64,000 nucleotides of DNA, taken from Tubiluchus corallicola. Taxonomy: Eukaryota > Animalia > Priapulida. Location: positions 558,001 through 622,000 of the forward strand of contig JAQGDQ010000009.1 of the NCBI GenBank assembly GCA_030141605.1, read 5' to 3'. Both the position numbers and the translations under genes were made by a program. Below are positions 46,542 through 58,490 of this stretch, piece after piece. How positions within the stretch are numbered: position 1 is the stretch's first letter; every line of letters begins with the position of its first letter. Under the pieces are notes generated by a model. It ran no database searches and was not told the DNA's origin. It worked only from the letters and a program-made list of their open reading frames with translations.

Positions 46542-48410
46542 TCACTGTTGATTTTTATCCAGTTTTGCTAACAGAAGTTCGTTTTTGTGGCACTCGTCTT
46601 TAAACTCTTTTACTGTTTTGAAATACAGTCTTTCTTTTTCTACTATATCTAGATACTGGTCACTTAACTGATCACGTTTCATCTTTGTCTCCTGTTTTTT
46701 CTTTTCTACCTTCGTACGATTTTGTTTCACGCCTTCCACGATTTGCTCAAACTGCTTGAGAAATTGTTCCTTTGTCACTGGCGAAGACATGGCTTGCTCA
46801 AACGTGTCATGAATAGAGTTAAGCAAATTAATTTCCTTGCTTATGTAAAGCCTGCTGTCATCTAGAATATTATAAAGTGTGTAAAACTGTTTAGTTTCTT
46901 TTAGTTTGTGTGCAACTTGATTGTAAAGCTCAACAAATCTACGCTGATATTGACTTAATTCAGCTCGTGTTGGAACTTCATCAATTTTTCGCTGAAGTGT
47001 AGCTATGTCCCTATTTTTCCTGGCAAGCATTATCTGCAGTTTCTGATATTTAGCTTTATCAATTTCATACTGACACTCGATCAGCTCGGTTCGCTCCTGA
47101 TCTTTGCTGCTGCTGATGTTGCCACCCGAAGTTTCTAGTTGCTCTATTTCAGTCTCTAATCGTGACTTTTCCTCCTTGCATTTGGCACGGAAATCACGCT
47201 CTTGTTTCTTTAGGCTTTCATTCTCTGCGATAAGCGATTTTAGACGTTCTATAACAGCTCTGTTCTCATCGTTCTCTATATCACCTAGTTCACCAATTGT
47301 CTCTTGTAAATTGTCGTGTGACTGCTTACAACGTCCCAACTTCAGATGCATATCATCGTGCCTCGACTTTAATTCAGAAGAAGATTTTTGTACATCGCTA
47401 AATTGTGCCGTGCCAGATGTCAACTGCTTTTCTAATGAAGCCATCACGTGAGTATGTCTTTGAGCACCACTCATCCGCTCTCCTTTTGCTTCCTGCAGCT
47501 CTGCCCGCTTCTCTGCGTACTCTGTTGCCATCTGCTGAATTTCTTTTGACTGCATACCTACGATGGATCCAACAGCGCTGGCAGTGAGTTTTCTATCTGA
47601 TGTAGCAGTCATTCCTCCCATTAAGGCAGCAATTTTTTCTTGTTCAGCAGCATGTATTTCATCATTTATCTTGTCGTTATCAGTGCCAGGTTTTTTATTA
47701 TCTGTACTATTTTTAGTTTTGTGTCTAAGCAAGCCGGGAACTTGTCCATACTCTAATAATGTAGAATGTACCCTTGATTCTTCATCGATTAGTTGACTGT
47801 GATCGTGTCTTTTAAACCTGCGCTGAGGAGCATACTGCTCTCTAACAGTTTTTATAGTACTACCACTTTTGTCTTTATTCTCATCCCTAACCAGATCTTT
47901 GGGCATTTTGTAATTCTTGCTAAACTGCAGCAGAGAAAAGGAGCGAATGTAGTCTCCCATCTCTTGGCGTGACTCAATGGCACGTTTGACTAACCACTGC
48001 ACTACAGGATAAATATGGATGAAGTCCAGTCCCTGTATCTGATGCGGCTCAATTGGGTGAGGACACTTCATTTTAGGCAGGACGGCGACTATTTTCTCTG
48101 TTAGCGCAATTTTTTGACCTATGGTAGAGTTTTCCTGGAAAAGTAGATCGACGTCAACATCGAAGTTACAGGTAGTAATACACCAAGTCATGCCACCAAC
48201 AACTTTGTCAAATGGTGATAAACCTTTTATTCGAGCTCGAAAATAACCAGCTGCCAAGAGAAGATCGATAATTTCATGCATTTTAACGAACTGCTCTTCA
48301 TCTTCTCTGGTTTCTGGCTCAATTTCTCTACCATCAGCATCATATAGAATGGTCATTTGCTTTGTACTAGCTGTCCGTCCACGCGGAGTGAACATGCTTT
48401 GTTCTGTCAT
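46542..48410 (-). CDS. CCDC93: Coiled-coil domain-containing protein 93 (CCC/Commander complex subunit), intronless CDS, 622 aa
   Basis: N-terminal ETREDEEQ..LLAAGYFRARIKGLSPFDKVVGGMTWCITTCNFDVDVDLLFQENSTIGQKIAL and C-terminal IDEVPTRAELSQYQRRFVELY match CCDC93 as recalled. The ORF is full-length and uninterrupted. Confidence 0.97.
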   Translation of the reverse strand: MTEQSMFTPRGRTASTKQMTILYDADGREIEPETREDEEQFVKMHEIIDLLLAAGYFRARIKGLSPFDKVVGGMTWCITTCNFDVDVDLLFQENSTIGQKIALTEKIVAVLPKMKCPHPIEPHQIQGLDFIHIYPVVQWLVKRAIESRQEMGDYIRSFSLLQFSKNYKMPKDLVRDENKDKSGSTIKTVREQYAPQRRFKRHDHSQLIDEESRVHSTLLEYGQVPGLLRHKTKNSTDNKKPGTDNDKINDEIHAAEQEKIAALMGGMTATSDRKLTASAVGSIVGMQSKEIQQMATEYAEKRAELQEAKGERMSGAQRHTHVMASLEKQLTSGTAQFSDVQKSSSELKSRHDDMHLKLGRCKQSHDNLQETIGELGDIENDENRAVIERLKSLIAENESLKKQERDFRAKCKEEKSRLETEIEQLETSGGNISSSKDQERTELIECQYEIDKAKYQKLQIMLARKNRDIATLQRKIDEVPTRAELSQYQRRFVELYNQVAHKLKETKQFYTLYNILDDSRLYISKEINLLNSIHDTFEQAMSSPVTKEQFLKQFEQIVEGVKQNRTKVEKKKQETKMKRDQLSDQYLDIVEKERLYFKTVKEFKDECHKNELLLAKLDKNQQ

Positions 48411-48923
48411 ATTTCACGTGTGCAAAATAAGCTTATTTAGACTAACAATGCCTAACACTAGTGTTACTTCCACTAAACAAATGTGTTAGCAAACTTGCAG
48501 AAATGAAAACAGTCCTAAAACACTAAAGCCATTCCTTTTTTGTGGCAAATCTGAAAAAAACAAAAATAATTAGACATTTCGCCAGCTTTTCATAGAGACT
48601 GGCAGGGCAATATTTGGTCATTTATAAAAGGCTTGATAAGTATAGCTACATATAAGAGTATTTATAAATACGCACAGCCTGTTGCAGCTTCAAAAAAATA
48701 GTTCTCAAATTTATTGTTTCTGAAACATTAGCTTCTTACATTGTAACGTAAGAATAAGACTCCACTGACACCTCGCATATTTTGGAAATCCTGACTAGAT
48801 CCAGTGTTGTGGGCGTTACATGTGCATCAGTTTGTATGAGCTATTACTTTTTCTGTTTTTCCATCTCTTCATAAATCTCTACATGCCACAAATTGCAAAG
48901 AAACTGATCAAATTCAACTTTAC

Positions 48924-49499
48924 CTAGTTACTGCTGCTATCACTTGAAGTTACGGGCTTGTTTGTAGGCTCATTGCGTTGTTTCCACTCTCTGTAGAAAT
49001 CAGCAAGGGGCCACCCTCCCTTTTTCTCTTTTGGAACAAATGTCTCGTTATTTTGCAGTCTGTACCAGCTCCAGTGAATAAGGCCTAAAGCAGGAACCAT
49101 AACAATAAAAAACCTGAAAAAACATTTACTAAAATTATGTGATGTTATGTTATATTAAAACACCTTGAAATTTTCAAAAAATGGAGATACTACGTGAATA
49201 CTGAAACAACTGAACAAGTAGTTTTCGCTCATGACCTCGTAACTATCTACAAGTACAAGTATGACTATGAGGATTTTCAAAGAAACTAATCTGATCCAAG
49301 ACTGTGTCCTCACTCATTATCTTGAACAGGTTGGCAAGGTCAATTAACAAAACTCACTGCTTTAGTTCTTTTATCCACCCTACTTAATAAAGTTAGTTAG
49401 TAAACTAAACAGTAAATTACACTGAATGATTTCAGGGTCGACCCAAGTACCACAGTTAGCCTACCTGTAACGACTGCAGAACTGTTTGACTGCGTCCAT
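48924..49499 (-). CDS. 74-aa single-pass microprotein resembling MKKS uORF protein uMKKS1; two exons (49499-49465, 49113-48924)
   Basis: Spliced translation MDAVKQFCSRYRFFIVMVPALGLIHWSWYRLQNNETFVPKEKKGGWPLADFYREWKQRNEPTNKPVTSSDSSSN*. Donor AG|gtaggc and acceptor ttttttcag|G are canonical and phase-matched. The start context gtaATGG is good. The core matches recalled human uMKKS1 (YKVLVVMVPLVGLIHLGWYRI). Confidence 0.85.
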
Positions 49500-49859
49500 T
49501 ACGCACAGTACGAATTCTATGTATTCGGGCTTCTTATAAAGCTAATATGATATACTTCACAAGCAACTTAAAATTTCAAATCAGGATTTCAAAATTACTT
49601 TAAATTTGATAAAAAAACGCCTTGTACTCCATGCACAGGCAACACAACACGGCAACATCGCCCATACCAGTTAACTGTTCAAGTGTTTTGGGAACTTTAC
49701 TGCCGCCTTTCGTGTGTTTTTGTTCGATTCAAATGCAGTTTATTTCTAAGATGCTTGCAATAGTTATAATAAATTAAATAGCCACTAGGCAGATACACGA
49801 TGCCGCCTCCGTAGAAATTCCACATGGTTGATCACACTTATCCTTCACCAGATTCCTAT

Positions 49860-50530
49860 AAGAGAATCTCAATAGACTAACAATACGTCGACGACATTGG
49901 TTGGATTAGCATTTTAAAATTCTGCCCAGAAACATTTAAAAAACACATGGGTTCACTACTTAACACTGAAGATGATAAAAAATAGGAAACAAAAGGCAGT
50001 GTACGGTTTTATCCAAAATAAATCTATTCTAATCAGCCAGAAACCATTCTCAAAACAAGGCTGTATCTTTTCAATGCATATGTAACGTTGGGCTTCACTG
50101 TAATGCAGGAAGCAGAAATAGATGGTTTCACAGAGAAATACATCTCAGACAAATCTTAAAAATAAAATGACAATAATTACATCATTTTAAATGAACATCT
50201 GTATAACTGGACCAAAGAGAAACTTTAAAGCAGTAAAATTATAATCAGAAAACTAAAATGGGTAGAACATTTAATGAGATTACCAAAGACAACAATAGTA
50301 AGATTAGCATTAAACGAGGCACTGAATCTCTGAAACCTATTAAATGACTTCAAAGCAAACCGTAGACAACTTTGATATCAAGAATTAATAAAGACTTACG
50401 ACAGCTCAGAACAAACTTAACAATAGCATCACAGTTGAAAATTTCAGCTGCAGCCAGGAAACAGTGACGTGCTCTAATAAAGGACAGAGGTTCAATGTCT
50501 AAAATATTTGTTTAGAGCAACAGGAGAAGA
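49860..50530 (+). mobile_element. Degraded non-LTR retrotransposon 3' fragment (RTE-like)
   Basis: Broken frames read GSLLNTEDD, KTRLYLFNAYV, IDGF, LNEHLY and RKLKWVEHLMRLP..LALNEAL. These resemble the post-RT C-terminal region of RTE-clade LINEs. Multiple stops and frameshifts. Confidence 0.65.
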
Positions 50531-53044
50531 AAGTAGCCAAGCTCCGCAAGTTTTGTGCATACCATCACACCACACCACAACAACAATCCGCATTACACCA
50601 TTATACCACTTCACCACTCAACAATACATACTATGACTGAAAAATTCTTTAATTTAGTTGTTGATTCTAAAACTAGAGAACATACTTTAAAACTGTTTAA
50701 AGAGTGGTCACGTACGTTTTGACATTCGTAAATGTTCGTTTACTGTGAGTGTGGTGAAATGAATGGAATAATCTTGCCTGCCACGGTGATTGCTGCGCCA
50801 GCCATAGTAAAGCTTAAATCTTTAATCTACAATTACTTCGTGGAAAAATATGGGGTTTCTATGAGTGTACGCGCTCAACCCTTAATATTGACGGTATATA
50901 AGGTAACGTTGACTTACGTTGGTGTGTATCTTCTCGACGTCGTTTCCTGGTGTAGTTTGTTGGCGGTGTGTTTTGTTTTCCAGATTTTCTGATTAACTAT
51001 TGACATGGCTACGCACATTTAGTTCCTAAAAATCATATTCCACGCTATAATGTGGACTAGAAACTAAATTTTAGAAGTTAAGGATTTTCTAAAGTGCTAT
51101 TTGTCAACAGGTTGGACGTGCCATGTGTTAGACTGTCTACATGTAATGCCTGTATAAACTTAAAGACTCTTTTATGTATAAAACAGTATCTGGCGATTTG
51201 TTACATGGTTGAGCAGTCATACTCATATAATGTAAGAGGTTCTAGCATTGATGTCTTGCTGAAATCTAGGTTTTTCAAAAAGATACTGCTTTGAAACCAA
51301 ACTTCCTGTTTGCCATAATTGGCAATCAATTGCACCCTTTTTATTTTTTATTTTATTGTTATTTTGGCTATATCTCTGCTTTGGTAATATTAACATGACT
51401 TAATCATTGTCATAACATCATCGTACTAACATTACTAACATATATTCCTCATCAGCATGCTGAATTTCAACGTTTTTGCAGTTTGTCCTCATTCTAGAAA
51501 GAAAGTGTGTGTGTGTGTGCATGCATGCGAGTGAGAGAGAGAGAGAGCTCATTTAATGCATTTCTGTTTTTGTTTCTCACATTTCAAATTTACCATTAAT
51601 GTGGGCGGCACCAATACAAGATTTTCTTCTTGGTGTTGTACAGAGGCATACCAGTAGCCTCAACAAAAATTACATGTTATTGTGTTGAATCAAAATTTGT
51701 GTTAATTTAATGCTTTCTGTATAAATTATCATTGCAAACTAATTTGCTCGTGGTAAATCTAACAATAAATTCTAAAATTCTGGCCTTGGTGAAACCCATA
51801 TTTATCTCTTTAGCTGAATTATGGGCAGTAAGAATTGGCCTAACAATATGAAATGACAATTTGCTTCATTCTCCAAAGAAAGACTTAAAGTTAAAGTAGA
51901 GAAATCCATACAAGGTGATTTCATTTGATTGAAATTGCCTGAGTAATCATTACAGCATTATATAAAACTCTAGAATCAACAAGAAAGCCTAGGGCACCGA
52001 GAAGCTTGGAGGGGTCGCCTACTAATGCATAATGGACATGAACAACTGGTAGCCATTAATGTATGCAGTGGTTTAAAACATCTGTGCATAATTCTGTCAA
52101 ATGTATTATTTTAGTTCAATAACAGCTGTGCATGATTGTCATAGTGATAAAAACCCAAGATTCCTTTTCTTGCAAAGTCTTTCATGGAGATTTGATGGAA
52201 ATATTTTTAATCTGCAGACCCTATGCATCATCAATTCTATGTTCATCACTACTTCATTAAAAGAAGCCAATACAAGCATTTTTGATGTCTGATTAAAGAT
52301 ACATGCATGCAGTTCCGAAAAAAGGTTAAGAAAGGCTATAATTGAAAAACTGAAATGGTATTTATTATTATATGTCATGATAGTTTTCACCATTATCTTG
52401 GTTGTACTGTGCATGACTACCTCGGTGGGATTTTGGAATTTGATGTGCTATGTTTGCAAGTGCCAAATTCAGTTATGCAGTTATGACGTCCACATTAGGA
52501 ACTTTTGTGAGACTACAATTTTTTAAGCTGTTCCTACTTGGGTTTGAAATAGCAGTTTGACCAGTTTTGTAAAAAAAGATCATTTTAATTAATTAGATTA
52601 AAAAATTGACATTACGAGTTCCGAACAATTATTACGTCTGTGTCTAGAAGACAAAATGTCTATTACTTTTACTTCAATGTTCCGCAAAGCCACACAATCT
52701 TTGGATGCCTGTGCAACCTTTCCATATCCATGGGAATTCTCCACAATGACAACCCTGAACCATCTTGTGACATTTCTACATTCTAGTTCTATCAGAGCTG
52801 TTACATCAGTTGCATTGTAAAAATGGCCTAACTGCTACTTGTTTTGGTTTTACATCTACGTTTTCTATGTTGTAAGGTGGCATTTTAATTTGGCTAATTG
52901 TAAATTATTATGTTGTAAGTGAAATTTTTGTTGTTAGATTGCTAGTGGATGGTAATGCACCAAGCCAGATTCTGGAAGACTAGCTATCCCTTCGACTCAC
53001 TTGCTGCAGGAGAAAGTTCACTTTATTTATCTGTAGAGTGAATA

Positions 53045-54400
53045 ATGGAATCGCTTACCTTTTTAAAATGTGTTGATTGTGCGTGCATGTTTCTGTCTGA
53101 TGAATTATTCGTAAAGCATGTTAGGTCTGCCCACTGTGCAGAGGCATTCATTGTCAACTCTCAATGTCCTGTGTTGGAGTTAGGGGATGCGAATTTTATT
53201 GCAACAATGCCTGACCGCAAGTGTTTGATGTGCACTGTATGTCATTGTACATTTCCTTCTGAACAATTGTATCTAGAACATGCAAAGAGTACTCACTGTG
53301 CCAATGTTTCTTTTGTGAAATCGCAAATAAAAATTATGAATGCAGCGGAGCAAACCAATTTCCAAAATCCTACTTATTTAAACGAACAGGAAAGTGAGTT
53401 ACAGTCTTTACCTACCAGCAGTTCTAACAGCATTCAGAATAGCAACTGTATGGTGTATGAACCGAGTGAAACACTGAATCTTAATTTTGGTAAACATGAA
53501 CCTGCGGATGAAGAGGCTAGTGATAGCAGCAGTGCTGAAACAAAAAGTTGGGAGTCACGTCCGTTTTTTTGCAGTGTCTGTGGAAAAACATTTCGTAGAA
53601 AATATCACGTAAAGCGTCATATACTGAAACATGTAGCTGAACATAAGGTCTCCAAAGATGACATAGAAGACTGTGTTAAAGATTTAAATGAAAAGCTTCA
53701 ATATTCCTGCAGCTTTTGTGATAAAAAATTTTCAAGAAAGGAAGTGCAAGAGCGACATACCTTGAGATCTCACACAAAGAAACAAACGGTCTGTCACATT
53801 TGCCACAAGAAGGTTATTGACATAAAGAAGCACATTCAGCGTATACACGAACAAACTCACTTCTTTATATGTGATGTTTGTGGCAAAAAATGTAAATCTA
53901 AGAATGACATGACTAATCACAGACGAATACATACTGGAGAAACTCCGTATACTTGCAATGTTTGTGACAGAAAATTCAAGTGGCTGTCTGTGCTGAAAAA
54001 ACATCTCTACACTCATTCTGAAGAAAGATTGTTTCTTTGTTCCTTATGTGGAAAAAGTTTTCGGACAAATGATAATCTCCACAGACATAGACTAATACAT
54101 ACTAGCACCAACATGAACTACAAGTGCAATGTGTGCGGTGCGAAGTTTCTACGCAAAGCACAGTTAGTTGCGCACAGTAAGTCTCATGGTGGAAATAAAC
54201 CTCACAAGTGTGTGATATGTGGTCATGCTTTCTTGCTAAAAGTCAATTTGAAAACTCACCTAAGGACTCACACAGGTGAGAAGCCTTATAAATGTGATAA
54301 GTGCAAGAAGGCTTTTGCACGGCAACACTCCTACAAACGTCATCAACTGAAAAGTCACACAAAACAAGTTATAAAAGTACAGGCACTTCCAGTTACTTAG
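53045..54400 (+). CDS. C2H2 zinc-finger protein (about 9 C-terminal fingers plus 2 atypical N-terminal fingers), single coding exon
   Basis: Repeated CxxC-x12-HxxxH with TGETPY/TGEKPY linkers. A candidate splice acceptor ttgttag at about 52938 suggests a 5' UTR intron. Confidence 0.93.
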   Translation: MESLTFLKCVDCACMFLSDELFVKHVRSAHCAEAFIVNSQCPVLELGDANFIATMPDRKCLMCTVCHCTFPSEQLYLEHAKSTHCANVSFVKSQIKIMNAAEQTNFQNPTYLNEQESELQSLPTSSSNSIQNSNCMVYEPSETLNLNFGKHEPADEEASDSSSAETKSWESRPFFCSVCGKTFRRKYHVKRHILKHVAEHKVSKDDIEDCVKDLNEKLQYSCSFCDKKFSRKEVQERHTLRSHTKKQTVCHICHKKVIDIKKHIQRIHEQTHFFICDVCGKKCKSKNDMTNHRRIHTGETPYTCNVCDRKFKWLSVLKKHLYTHSEERLFLCSLCGKSFRTNDNLHRHRLIHTSTNMNYKCNVCGAKFLRKAQLVAHSKSHGGNKPHKCVICGHAFLLKVNLKTHLRTHTGEKPYKCDKCKKAFARQHSYKRHQLKSHTKQVIKVQALPVT

Positions 54401-56642: not shown

Positions 56643-57476
56643 GGTTGTCATACCATAATTATCAGAACATACGTTCATACCTTACAAAAAAGATATTATG
56701 CTATAATGGATAATTATTCAATATTGACTTTTGAAACCTATATCTAGAAACTGAAATCTCACCCTATCTGCATTAGAACATGCAATATAGCTAAGTAATG
56801 TTTTATACAAGTGACTGCTGCCATGTTAGCGGCCATCTTGAAATCCTACATAAGGTGATGTCATAGGTGTTTTCAAGCGTCATATGTGGATTCACGTTAA
56901 ACATAATCACCTAATCACCTTTTTTGCTAATCTGATAGCTAAAATGTGGCCTGTATAAGCTAGTGACAGTCGTCTTGTCGAACCACATTGGATGATTTTC
57001 GTTTGGCCTATGTCCGAAATTAATCAGCTTGATAAATTTTAGCAATTTCTGCTTTTAAGGCAGAGAGTGATTCTGGAAATTTTATGTATTATTCTGCTAC
57101 CTTATTGATTCTGAATGTACTAGTAAATATTAGGTCCAAATATGTACCAGTTTGGTGACTTTTGCACAGGAGAAAGTGAGCACAACAGGAGAAATATTGA
57201 TGAGGGAGGTTCACTGAACATTTTGGAATATGTCTCACATTTTTGCAAGGTGGGTTGATTAAATGTCAAAATTTGCTGACAAATCTGCTTGCTTATGACT
57301 GACAGCATAATCTGTTAATTGGTAGATGAGATCAATAAATGATTTTTACCATTTTCTTTTATGTTTTCCAGAATTTCAGAATTTGCAGTTAAATTCACAT
57401 TTGATTGACACAGTTCAACATTCGTGTATAGCAGATGAAAACGCTAAAACGCAAGTTGCGCTTCGGACATTAAGTT

Positions 57477-58490
57477 ATGCCACGGTTTGTGTTTCTAAAA
57501 TGCACAGCTTGTGCTACGTTATTTTTGACGGAAGACTTGTTTTCAAAACATGCCAGATCTCAGCACTGTGTTGAGGTGGTTTTTGTTGAACCAGAGAAAG
57601 ATGAGAAAGAAGAGCATGTAGAGCTCCTCAATTCTGTAGTTCCTGAAACTAGTGTAAGTGATACTGAGAAAACGGTGAACATCAGTCATATTATATTTGT
57701 TGGGGATGACTCAAATGAGTGCCAAAACGAGAGTACATGTAGTCATGAAAACGAATTTAGCAATTCAGAAAATTTTAAAGAAACAAGTAAGAGTGAAACG
57801 AATAGCCTTATGGCTAGCCCGTTGAAGGACCAAGTAAAATTGGTGCAGAGGACTAGAAACAAAACCAAAAAAGGGAAAAGATTAAAGACTCTGGAAAGCC
57901 AGTGTATGGAAAACACATTTGACTGTGATGTTTGTGCCAAAAAATTTAGTTTAAAAGAGAATCTGAAACGACATGTGCAGACTCACACTGGTGAGGCTCC
58001 ATATGCTTGCGACATTTGTGACAAAAGATTCAAACAGAAAGCTCAGAGAACTACACATCGATACACACACTTTGAAGAAAGGGCATTCCTGTGCTCAGCG
58101 TGTGGAAAGGGCTTCCGTACTGCTCAAGGGCTTCATAGACACGGTTTCACTCATCTAACAGATAAGAACTTCCGGTGCAAAACGTGCGGTGCCAAATTCC
58201 GTTACAAGGAGTTATTAGTTGTTCACGAAAAAACTCACAGCTCAATCAAACCTTTTGCGTGCAGCATGTGCGATCGTGCATTTGCCCAAAGAATAAATCT
58301 GCAGACACATTTGCGCACACATACAGGAGAAAAACCTTACGTTTGTTGTGTGAATAACTGTGGCAAAGCTTTTAGCAGGCAACAGTCTTATAAAGCTCAC
58401 CATTCTCGTGCTCATGGACCGCATGTTACTACATGGGAAGCTCAGACGGGTTACCGTAACAAGTGCGAATATGAACCAACAGTCTTATAA
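57477..58490 (+). CDS. C2H2 zinc-finger protein (6 C-terminal fingers plus 1 atypical N-terminal finger), paralogue of 53045..54400
   Basis: TGEAPY/TGEKPY linkers. The finger series is colinear with the neighbour (EER.FLCS.CGK.FRT, CGAKF, NL.THLRTHTGEKPY, FARQHSYK/FSRQQSYK). Confidence 0.93.
   Translation: MPRFVFLKCTACATLFLTEDLFSKHARSQHCVEVVFVEPEKDEKEEHVELLNSVVPETSVSDTEKTVNISHIIFVGDDSNECQNESTCSHENEFSNSENFKETSKSETNSLMASPLKDQVKLVQRTRNKTKKGKRLKTLESQCMENTFDCDVCAKKFSLKENLKRHVQTHTGEAPYACDICDKRFKQKAQRTTHRYTHFEERAFLCSACGKGFRTAQGLHRHGFTHLTDKNFRCKTCGAKFRYKELLVVHEKTHSSIKPFACSMCDRAFAQRINLQTHLRTHTGEKPYVCCVNNCGKAFSRQQSYKAHHSRAHGPHVTTWEAQTGYRNKCEYEPTVL

Follow-up and report, generated by a model that had tools for sequence, protein, structure and literature searches.

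The window analysed here, a 64,000-nt stretch of the genome of the priapulid Tubiluchus corallicola (GenBank assembly GCA_030141605.1, contig JAQGDQ010000009.1, positions 558,001 to 622,000 of the forward strand), comes from an intron-rich genome of invertebrate type and carries on its minus strand a short spliced gene whose 74-residue product is, to judge from profile searches and shared invariant residues, a member of the uMKKS1 (LOC128706665, micro-MKKS63) microprotein family. The gene lies upstream of an intronless CCDC93, and the explanation favoured here, with a confidence slightly better than even, is that CCDC93 is likely a retrocopy that replaced MKKS as the partner of the microprotein, and that it probably uses the promoter of the microprotein gene for its own transcription.

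A spliced microprotein gene of the uMKKS1 family

A first-pass annotation of the window had proposed a spliced open reading frame (ORF) of 74 codons, and every coordinate of it proved correct on the minus strand: a first coding exon at 49499-49465 (35 nt, 11 codons plus 2 nt, its ATG flanked by G at -3 and +4); a GT-AG intron of 351 nt at 49464-49114; and a second coding exon at 49113-48924 (190 nt), encoding a hydrophobic helix with the family motif P-x5-H-x2-W-x3-Q, a second helix, a polar tail and the TAG stop. Splice sites were scored with a fixed approximate matrix against 1,867 control GT and 2,053 control AG sites, a self-trained splice model having been discarded because it had converged on a GT-type repeat. 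The donor at 49465 is the strongest in the region, its score being equalled or exceeded by 0 of the 1,867 GT sites, and the score of the acceptor at 49113 was equalled or exceeded by 67 of the 2,053 AG sites.

Profiles lacking the window peptide were built from 21 members (leaving out P0136) and from the 14 members not directly matched by the window peptide; the spliced product scored 74.9 and 61.6 bits with these, exon 2 alone 63.0 and 50.7 bits, and the runner-up among 2,040 stop-free pieces 4.5 and 5.6 bits, respectively. The gain of about 12 bits over exon 2 alone supports exon 1, and an unspliced start is excluded, since in-frame stop codons lie a short way before exon 2. AlphaFold2 modelling of the 74-residue product gave one confident helix (predicted local distance difference test score 87-90) spanning the single hydrophobic segment that had been noted in the first pass, and a weaker second helix. 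The profile scores and splice signals together indicate that the short ORF is a real gene of a real protein family.

The HMMER-type search suggested in the first-pass annotation recovered this family. A phmmer query with the exon-2 peptide (residues 12-74) against 1,835,955,588 proteins at E<=1e-3 returned eight matches, seven of which form one family of 55-90 residues aligned over the same segment, the three named members coming from two spiders and a midge; the eighth, P0123, was rejected as a repeat artefact. A profile of the seven members matched 21 of 1,121 candidates; 15 of these were additional to the first set, the named ones coming from a locust, two mosquitoes and a gastropod; P0131 was rejected as a clustering artefact, being a DNA polymerase. 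In the gastropod gene model, P0146, the family segment is fused with another short stretch of hydrophobic residues, which may be a separate microprotein that annotation has joined to the first. Proline, histidine, tryptophan and glutamine are invariant across the 23 aligned family sequences, and all four are present in the window peptide. Pfam gave no family for the window peptide and one sub-threshold match only among eight short relatives, a word-based search with exon 2 found no candidate, and neither the microprotein nor CCDC93 was found in viral contigs.

Homology to human uMKKS1, proposed in the first pass, is supported by the direct phmmer family, the profile matches, a lead in the Atlas and an alignment by eye, without an E-value, in which 12 of 21 core residues are identical, with no gaps, to human micro-MKKS63/uMKKS1 (sequence in the supplement of PMC13577902). 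A vertebrate-like match, P0128, shares 20 of 37 residues with the human protein, likewise by eye and without an E-value. The three best Atlas clusters, scoring 0.89 (lead level only), are unnamed short eukaryotic proteins, one of them called 'LOC128706665 homolog', and a preprint (10.1101/2024.10.01.615885) identifies LOC128706665 as the gene of the MKKS alternative protein, for which it predicts a connection with complex IV. Independent support for the link of the family to MKKS comes from gene order in the insect-like loci described below; since gene order defines a locus rather than a protein family, the window protein may belong to the family without an MKKS neighbour. By analogy with the human protein, the window microprotein is predicted to span a mitochondrial membrane once.

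Three observations weigh against this assignment. The hydrophobic segment of the window protein is the weakest of eight compared (hydropathy 1.48 versus 1.54-1.99), the family-invariant glutamine is, by eye, a lysine in the human protein, and the Atlas score is a mere lead on the tool's own scale. A crude selection count over five insect-like copies, in which 6 of 48 codon columns carry silent changes only and 13 an amino-acid change, lends no support to strong purifying selection.

CCDC93 and the partners of the family at other loci

The next gene downstream is CCDC93 (46542-48410, minus strand, ATG at 48410), in agreement with the first-pass claim that the microprotein here precedes a partner other than MKKS. 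The product is a full-length protein of 622 residues (Pfam PF09762, E 2.9e-134; PF21673, E 3.4e-45), and its coding region is taken to be one exon because four of four homologues align with it as a single colinear piece. Human CCDC93 is multi-exon, and amphioxus CCDC93 isoforms differ through internal cassettes of 11 and 25 residues. Among the listed differences between the window gene and sequencing run X2, 17 of 18 are synonymous, which argues that CCDC93 is no pseudogene and is under purifying selection. The CpG observed/expected ratio (o/e) of the gene is 0.76, versus 0.53 in the body of UTP20 (introns included), a convergent plus-strand gene at about 1500-45000 with many exons over ~40 kb (Pfam PF07539, PF20416, PF23099).

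An intronless CCDC93 beside an intron-rich UTP20 fits, as a sequence pattern, the model of gene symbiosis by retroposition, in which an intronless retrocopy lands beside an active gene to give a bicistronic pair (PMC13303939); the same source reports that downstream ORFs are intronless in 50% of human bicistronic transcripts, versus under 10% in monocistronic ones. CCDC93 is thus likely to be a retrocopy that took over the position of MKKS, the probable ancestral partner. Telling against retroposition at this locus, three full-length CCDC93 proteins in ENA data (P0052, P0053 and P0058, on contigs of 7-38 kb) may be intronless too, so that intron loss may predate the pairing with the microprotein; one of the three is sister to the window CCDC93 in a FastTree phylogeny, where the window lineage is a long branch outside the sampled molluscs, echinoderms and chordates.

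The first-pass annotation had envisaged an old gene acting repeatedly as first cistron and had proposed a survey of the downstream gene across animals. Scanning of metagenome contigs produced 27 pattern matches and seven confirmed family loci (L001-L007), which together with the window lend support to that idea by providing three partners: an MKKS-like gene in five insect-like loci, a DnaJ-domain gene in one mollusc-like locus and CCDC93 in the window. Six of the seven loci are insect-like, with a locust protein as best named match, and count as one lineage because all are close kin (L006 and L007 differ by 2 bases in 13,731). In all six a GTAAGT lies 20-25 nt past the microprotein stop; in the five that are long enough (L001, L003, L004, L006 and L007), it is followed by 2.2-2.7 kb with two AATAAA and then an acceptor 18 nt before the MKKS-like ATG, the leaders carrying six upstream AUGs.

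The insect-like partner is a divergent group II chaperonin-like protein of 562 residues in three exons (Pfam Cpn60_TCP1, E 1e-29). It was grouped with MKKS because its length is close to the 570 residues of human MKKS, unlike the 723 of BBS10 and 710 of BBS12 (PMC2846930). In comparison by eye with human MKKS, 18 of 29 and 17 of 41 residues are identical in two blocks, and about 7 of 45 in the matching BBS10 block. The Atlas named BBS10 (0.95), not MKKS, as the nearest cluster, which counts against the assignment; this name is given less weight here, and the length and the aligned blocks place the partner as MKKS-like, nearer to MKKS than to BBS10 or BBS12. The gene is observed in insect-like DNA at L003:8578-12194 and L007:13073-16774; BBS6, BBS10 and BBS12 were not found in the insect proteomes queried in PMC12491567, from Acercaria to Holometabola.

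The mollusc-like locus L005 (1,226 nt, without an evident intron and closest, among named proteins, to one from a gastropod) holds a family ORF at 18-218 and, 57 nt after its stop, an ORF at 275-1021 with a DnaJ domain and a hydrophobic segment, which we take to be DNAJC4-like. There is no AUG between the starts of the two ORFs, making this a candidate leaky-scanning bicistronic message, with the reservation that the presence of two ORFs on a single contig is no proof of a common message. MKKS holds the downstream position in humans and in the insect lineage and is therefore likely to be the ancestral partner; DnaJ and CCDC93 would then likely be replacements. No remnant of an MKKS-like or DnaJ gene was detected in the window (best tblastn E 0.95).

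The interval between the two genes: one message or two

The splice signals on which the first-pass annotation had based a bicistronic message are in place: a GTAAAG donor directly 3' of the microprotein TAG, and an acceptor opening at 48550 that is rich in T and has a branch-like CTAAT, 140 nt ahead of the CCDC93 ATG. They would delimit a second intron of 373 nt (48923-48551) and a CCDC93 leader exon at 48550-48411 that holds a 5-codon upstream ORF (uORF) at 48532-48515. While right about these coordinates, that annotation had overlooked the uORF, the intronless state of the CCDC93 coding region and three minus-strand motifs between the genes. An AATAAA at 48715-48710, with a T run ~15 nt downstream, is a candidate poly(A) site of a microprotein-only message, one such motif in 373 nt being expected by chance as well, given a background of 2.1 per kb. 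Two TATAAA at 48666 and 48626 (span 48666-48621; background 0.8 per kb) may be CCDC93 TATA boxes, variant poly(A) signals or chance occurrences.

The only CpG-rich site upstream of both genes is the stretch at 49500-49950 (minus strand), likely the promoter and 5' leader of the microprotein gene and a candidate non-coding first exon, with a donor at 49668 that ranks second of 129 GT sites in 50200-48410. Its CpG o/e is 1.03, compared with a median of 0.52 in the UTP20 body (102 windows, of which 3 reach 0.99), and the ratio between microprotein and CCDC93 is 0.47, like gene body. Acceptor 48550 is strong, being equalled or exceeded by 12 of 2,053 control AG sites, with one such site in 10 of 74 windows of 514 nt (~14%). 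The layout of stop, donor, poly(A) signal and acceptor is shared by the insect-like and human loci. If donor 48924 is used, the distance from the first stop to the last junction is 0 nt, within the 55-nt limit for nonsense-mediated decay (PMC3951408). Contigs of run X1 cross both introns, which identifies X1 as DNA, either from the organism of the window or from one very near to it; in the low-coverage, RNA-like run X2, two contigs lie on CCDC93, while the microprotein and the junctions have none at 90% or 80% likeness. Neither run bears on expression.

Other features of the interval speak against a joint message. Donor 48924 is moderate, equalled or exceeded by 70 of 1,867 GT sites and in 67 of 641 windows of 60 nt (~10%), so that the second splice (48924>48550) is plausible only, and a candidate donor at 48740 scores slightly above it. 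The two TATAAA and the AATAAA fit separate genes, and four AUGs, two of them in strong context, precede the start of a gene expected to be broadly needed; a count of four is not unusual for the family, given the six in the insect-like leaders.

These features would be accounted for if the two genes were independent neighbours, the microprotein gene ending at AATAAA 48715, CCDC93 having its own promoter in 48900-48560 and the GT after the stop being fortuitous. The T run downstream of the AATAAA and the presence of two TATAAA where 0.3 are expected favour separate genes, donor 48924 and acceptor 48550 lie at chance levels of ~10% and of ~14% per 514 nt, and a separate promoter would avoid the four upstream AUGs. 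This arrangement is nevertheless considered unlikely: CpG content does not rise between the genes, though it does at both other apparent promoters nearby; the stop-donor-acceptor layout with internal AATAAA is conserved at the insect-like MKKS loci; and both the donor and the strong acceptor would have to be chance or to serve a very short first exon.

A shared promoter might instead deliver CCDC93 mostly through skipping of exon 2 (49465>48550), or by direct splicing of a non-coding first exon to 48550, with the bicistronic form as a minor product. The 49465>48550 junction would leave just a 20-codon uORF, short enough to permit reinitiation; donor 49465 greatly outscores 48924, and acceptor 48550 outscores 49113; and human MKKS isoforms likewise diverge at the junction past the microprotein exon. 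Such a route, to which a low probability is assigned, still requires the microprotein promoter, so that it differs from the favoured explanation only in the share of isoforms.

Cleavage near 48695 and addition of a spliced leader at acceptor 48550, yielding two monocistronic messages from an operon, is a still more improbable course of events. The poly(A) signal lies ~165 nt before a strong T-rich acceptor, a spacing resembling that in operons of nematodes and tunicates, and the window lineage falls outside the mollusc, echinoderm and chordate sampling. Set against this are the cis donor at the stop and the occurrence of the same layout in insect-like loci and in humans, groups in which spliced-leader trans-splicing is not known.

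That the short ORF is a decayed remnant or no relative of uMKKS1 is highly improbable, since its modest single-sequence E-values (2e-4 to 1e-3) and the empty Pfam and word-based searches are outweighed by an intact frame, all four invariant residues, the strongest donor of the region, 61.6 bits against the 14-member profile and the tie of the family to MKKS through gene order.

Transcription of CCDC93 from the microprotein promoter in some form, be it bicistronic, exon-skipped or trans-spliced, is considered probable.

Proposed mechanism

Under the favoured explanation, a uMKKS1-family gene upstream of a retroposed CCDC93, a single promoter near 49500-49950 would drive two messages. The short message would end near AATAAA 48715 and encode the microprotein only; in the long message, the donor at the stop codon would be spliced to 48550, placing CCDC93 after the microprotein, and alternative polyadenylation would set the ratio of short to long. 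With the microprotein stop placed at the junction, the long form would escape nonsense-mediated decay, and CCDC93, whose start is preceded by four AUGs, would be translated at a reduced rate, through leaky scanning or reinitiation, as has been reported for human MKKS. The microprotein, as predicted from its human counterpart, would reside in the mitochondrial membrane and support respiration, while its ORF would dampen the second ORF in cis, as described for MKKS, which is dampened by upstream ORFs (PMC11837024, reviewing Akimoto 2013; PMC7530721).

The first-pass annotation had further linked the microprotein to the Commander/CCC complex of endosomal recycling, but no support emerged for a functional connection of this kind. 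The three partners (a chaperonin-like protein, a DnaJ protein and a Commander subunit) are unrelated, which argues against a tie to endosomal recycling and for a pairing that is regulatory or historical rather than functional; microprotein and CCDC93 probably do not work together. A broader proposal, offered tentatively and held to be possible but doubtful, would cast the uMKKS1 gene as a bilaterian-wide landing pad, whose promoter and stop-adjacent donor would have been reloaded in separate lineages with unrelated second cistrons (ancestral MKKS, DnaJ and, here, retroposed CCDC93), the only CCDC93 of this animal, a core Commander subunit, being made as a second cistron under the microprotein ORF.

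Neighbouring features of the window

Two single-exon C2H2 zinc-finger ORFs with similar, zinc-binding-like N-terminal starts lie on the plus strand at 53042-54400 and 57474-58490. A CpG-rich site at 50700-51000 (o/e 1.37) may be the promoter of these zinc-finger ORFs or a bidirectional one, and a high-copy repeat at 50120-50720, between the microprotein and zinc-finger genes, has a depth of 648-715 in run X1 compared with ~12 nearby.

Comparison with known systems and significance

Human uMKKS1 (micro-MKKS63, LOC128706665; 63 residues, Q9HB66), encoded on the MKKS transcript (PMC13577902, PMC11837024, PMC7066179), resembles the window protein in size, in its one N-terminal hydrophobic helix and in the core residues aligned by eye, and its ORF likewise precedes a larger one, from which a splice junction and poly(A) signals separate it. 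The partner differs, being MKKS there and CCDC93 here, and the human ORF is a single 189-nt stretch, whereas the window coding region is split by an intron; no second microprotein ORF of the uMKKS2 type was found in the leader inferred for the window. STREMI-SLC35A4 and other human bicistronic pairs (PMC13303939) also combine an older mitochondrial microprotein in first place with an unrelated intronless ORF in second, with no evident functional link. In contrast to those gene-symbiosis pairs, the window locus is invertebrate, with co-transcription inferred only, and an older partner would have been replaced rather than a first one acquired; MKKS does not occur in the main text of that source. 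Conserved-peptide uORFs and dicistronic transcripts of Drosophila (PMC2276209) are similar in having upstream ORFs of ~70 residues, in their invertebrate setting and in their enrichment for mitochondrial proteins, but were called from pairs conserved among dipterans, whereas the window family has the same upstream ORF with different partners across phyla.

The uMKKS1 protein family and the retroposition model are already known; what is new is an unannotated member in a pairing with CCDC93. Neither an invertebrate uMKKS1 nor a pairing of the microprotein with CCDC93 was encountered in the literature searched, with the proviso that subscription papers, figures and the supplement and Fig. 2a of PMC7530721 (taxonomic range of the MKKS uORFs) may show invertebrate copies. 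In humans the locus yields micro-MKKS63 as its chief product, and microglia require this protein to respire fully in their mitochondria (PMC13577902); the protein localises to mitochondria in both tagged and endogenous form, and its knockout lowers oxygen consumption (PMC13577902; also PMC7066179). Reviews speak of its conservation among mammals (PMC11837024), and Pfam has no family for the microprotein. Its occurrence in arthropods, in molluscs and in the window animal points to an ancient gene overlooked by annotation, the natural exchange of partners sets what the microprotein itself does apart from its action as a brake on the downstream ORF, and the locus offers an invertebrate test of a gene-symbiosis model that was proposed for vertebrates.

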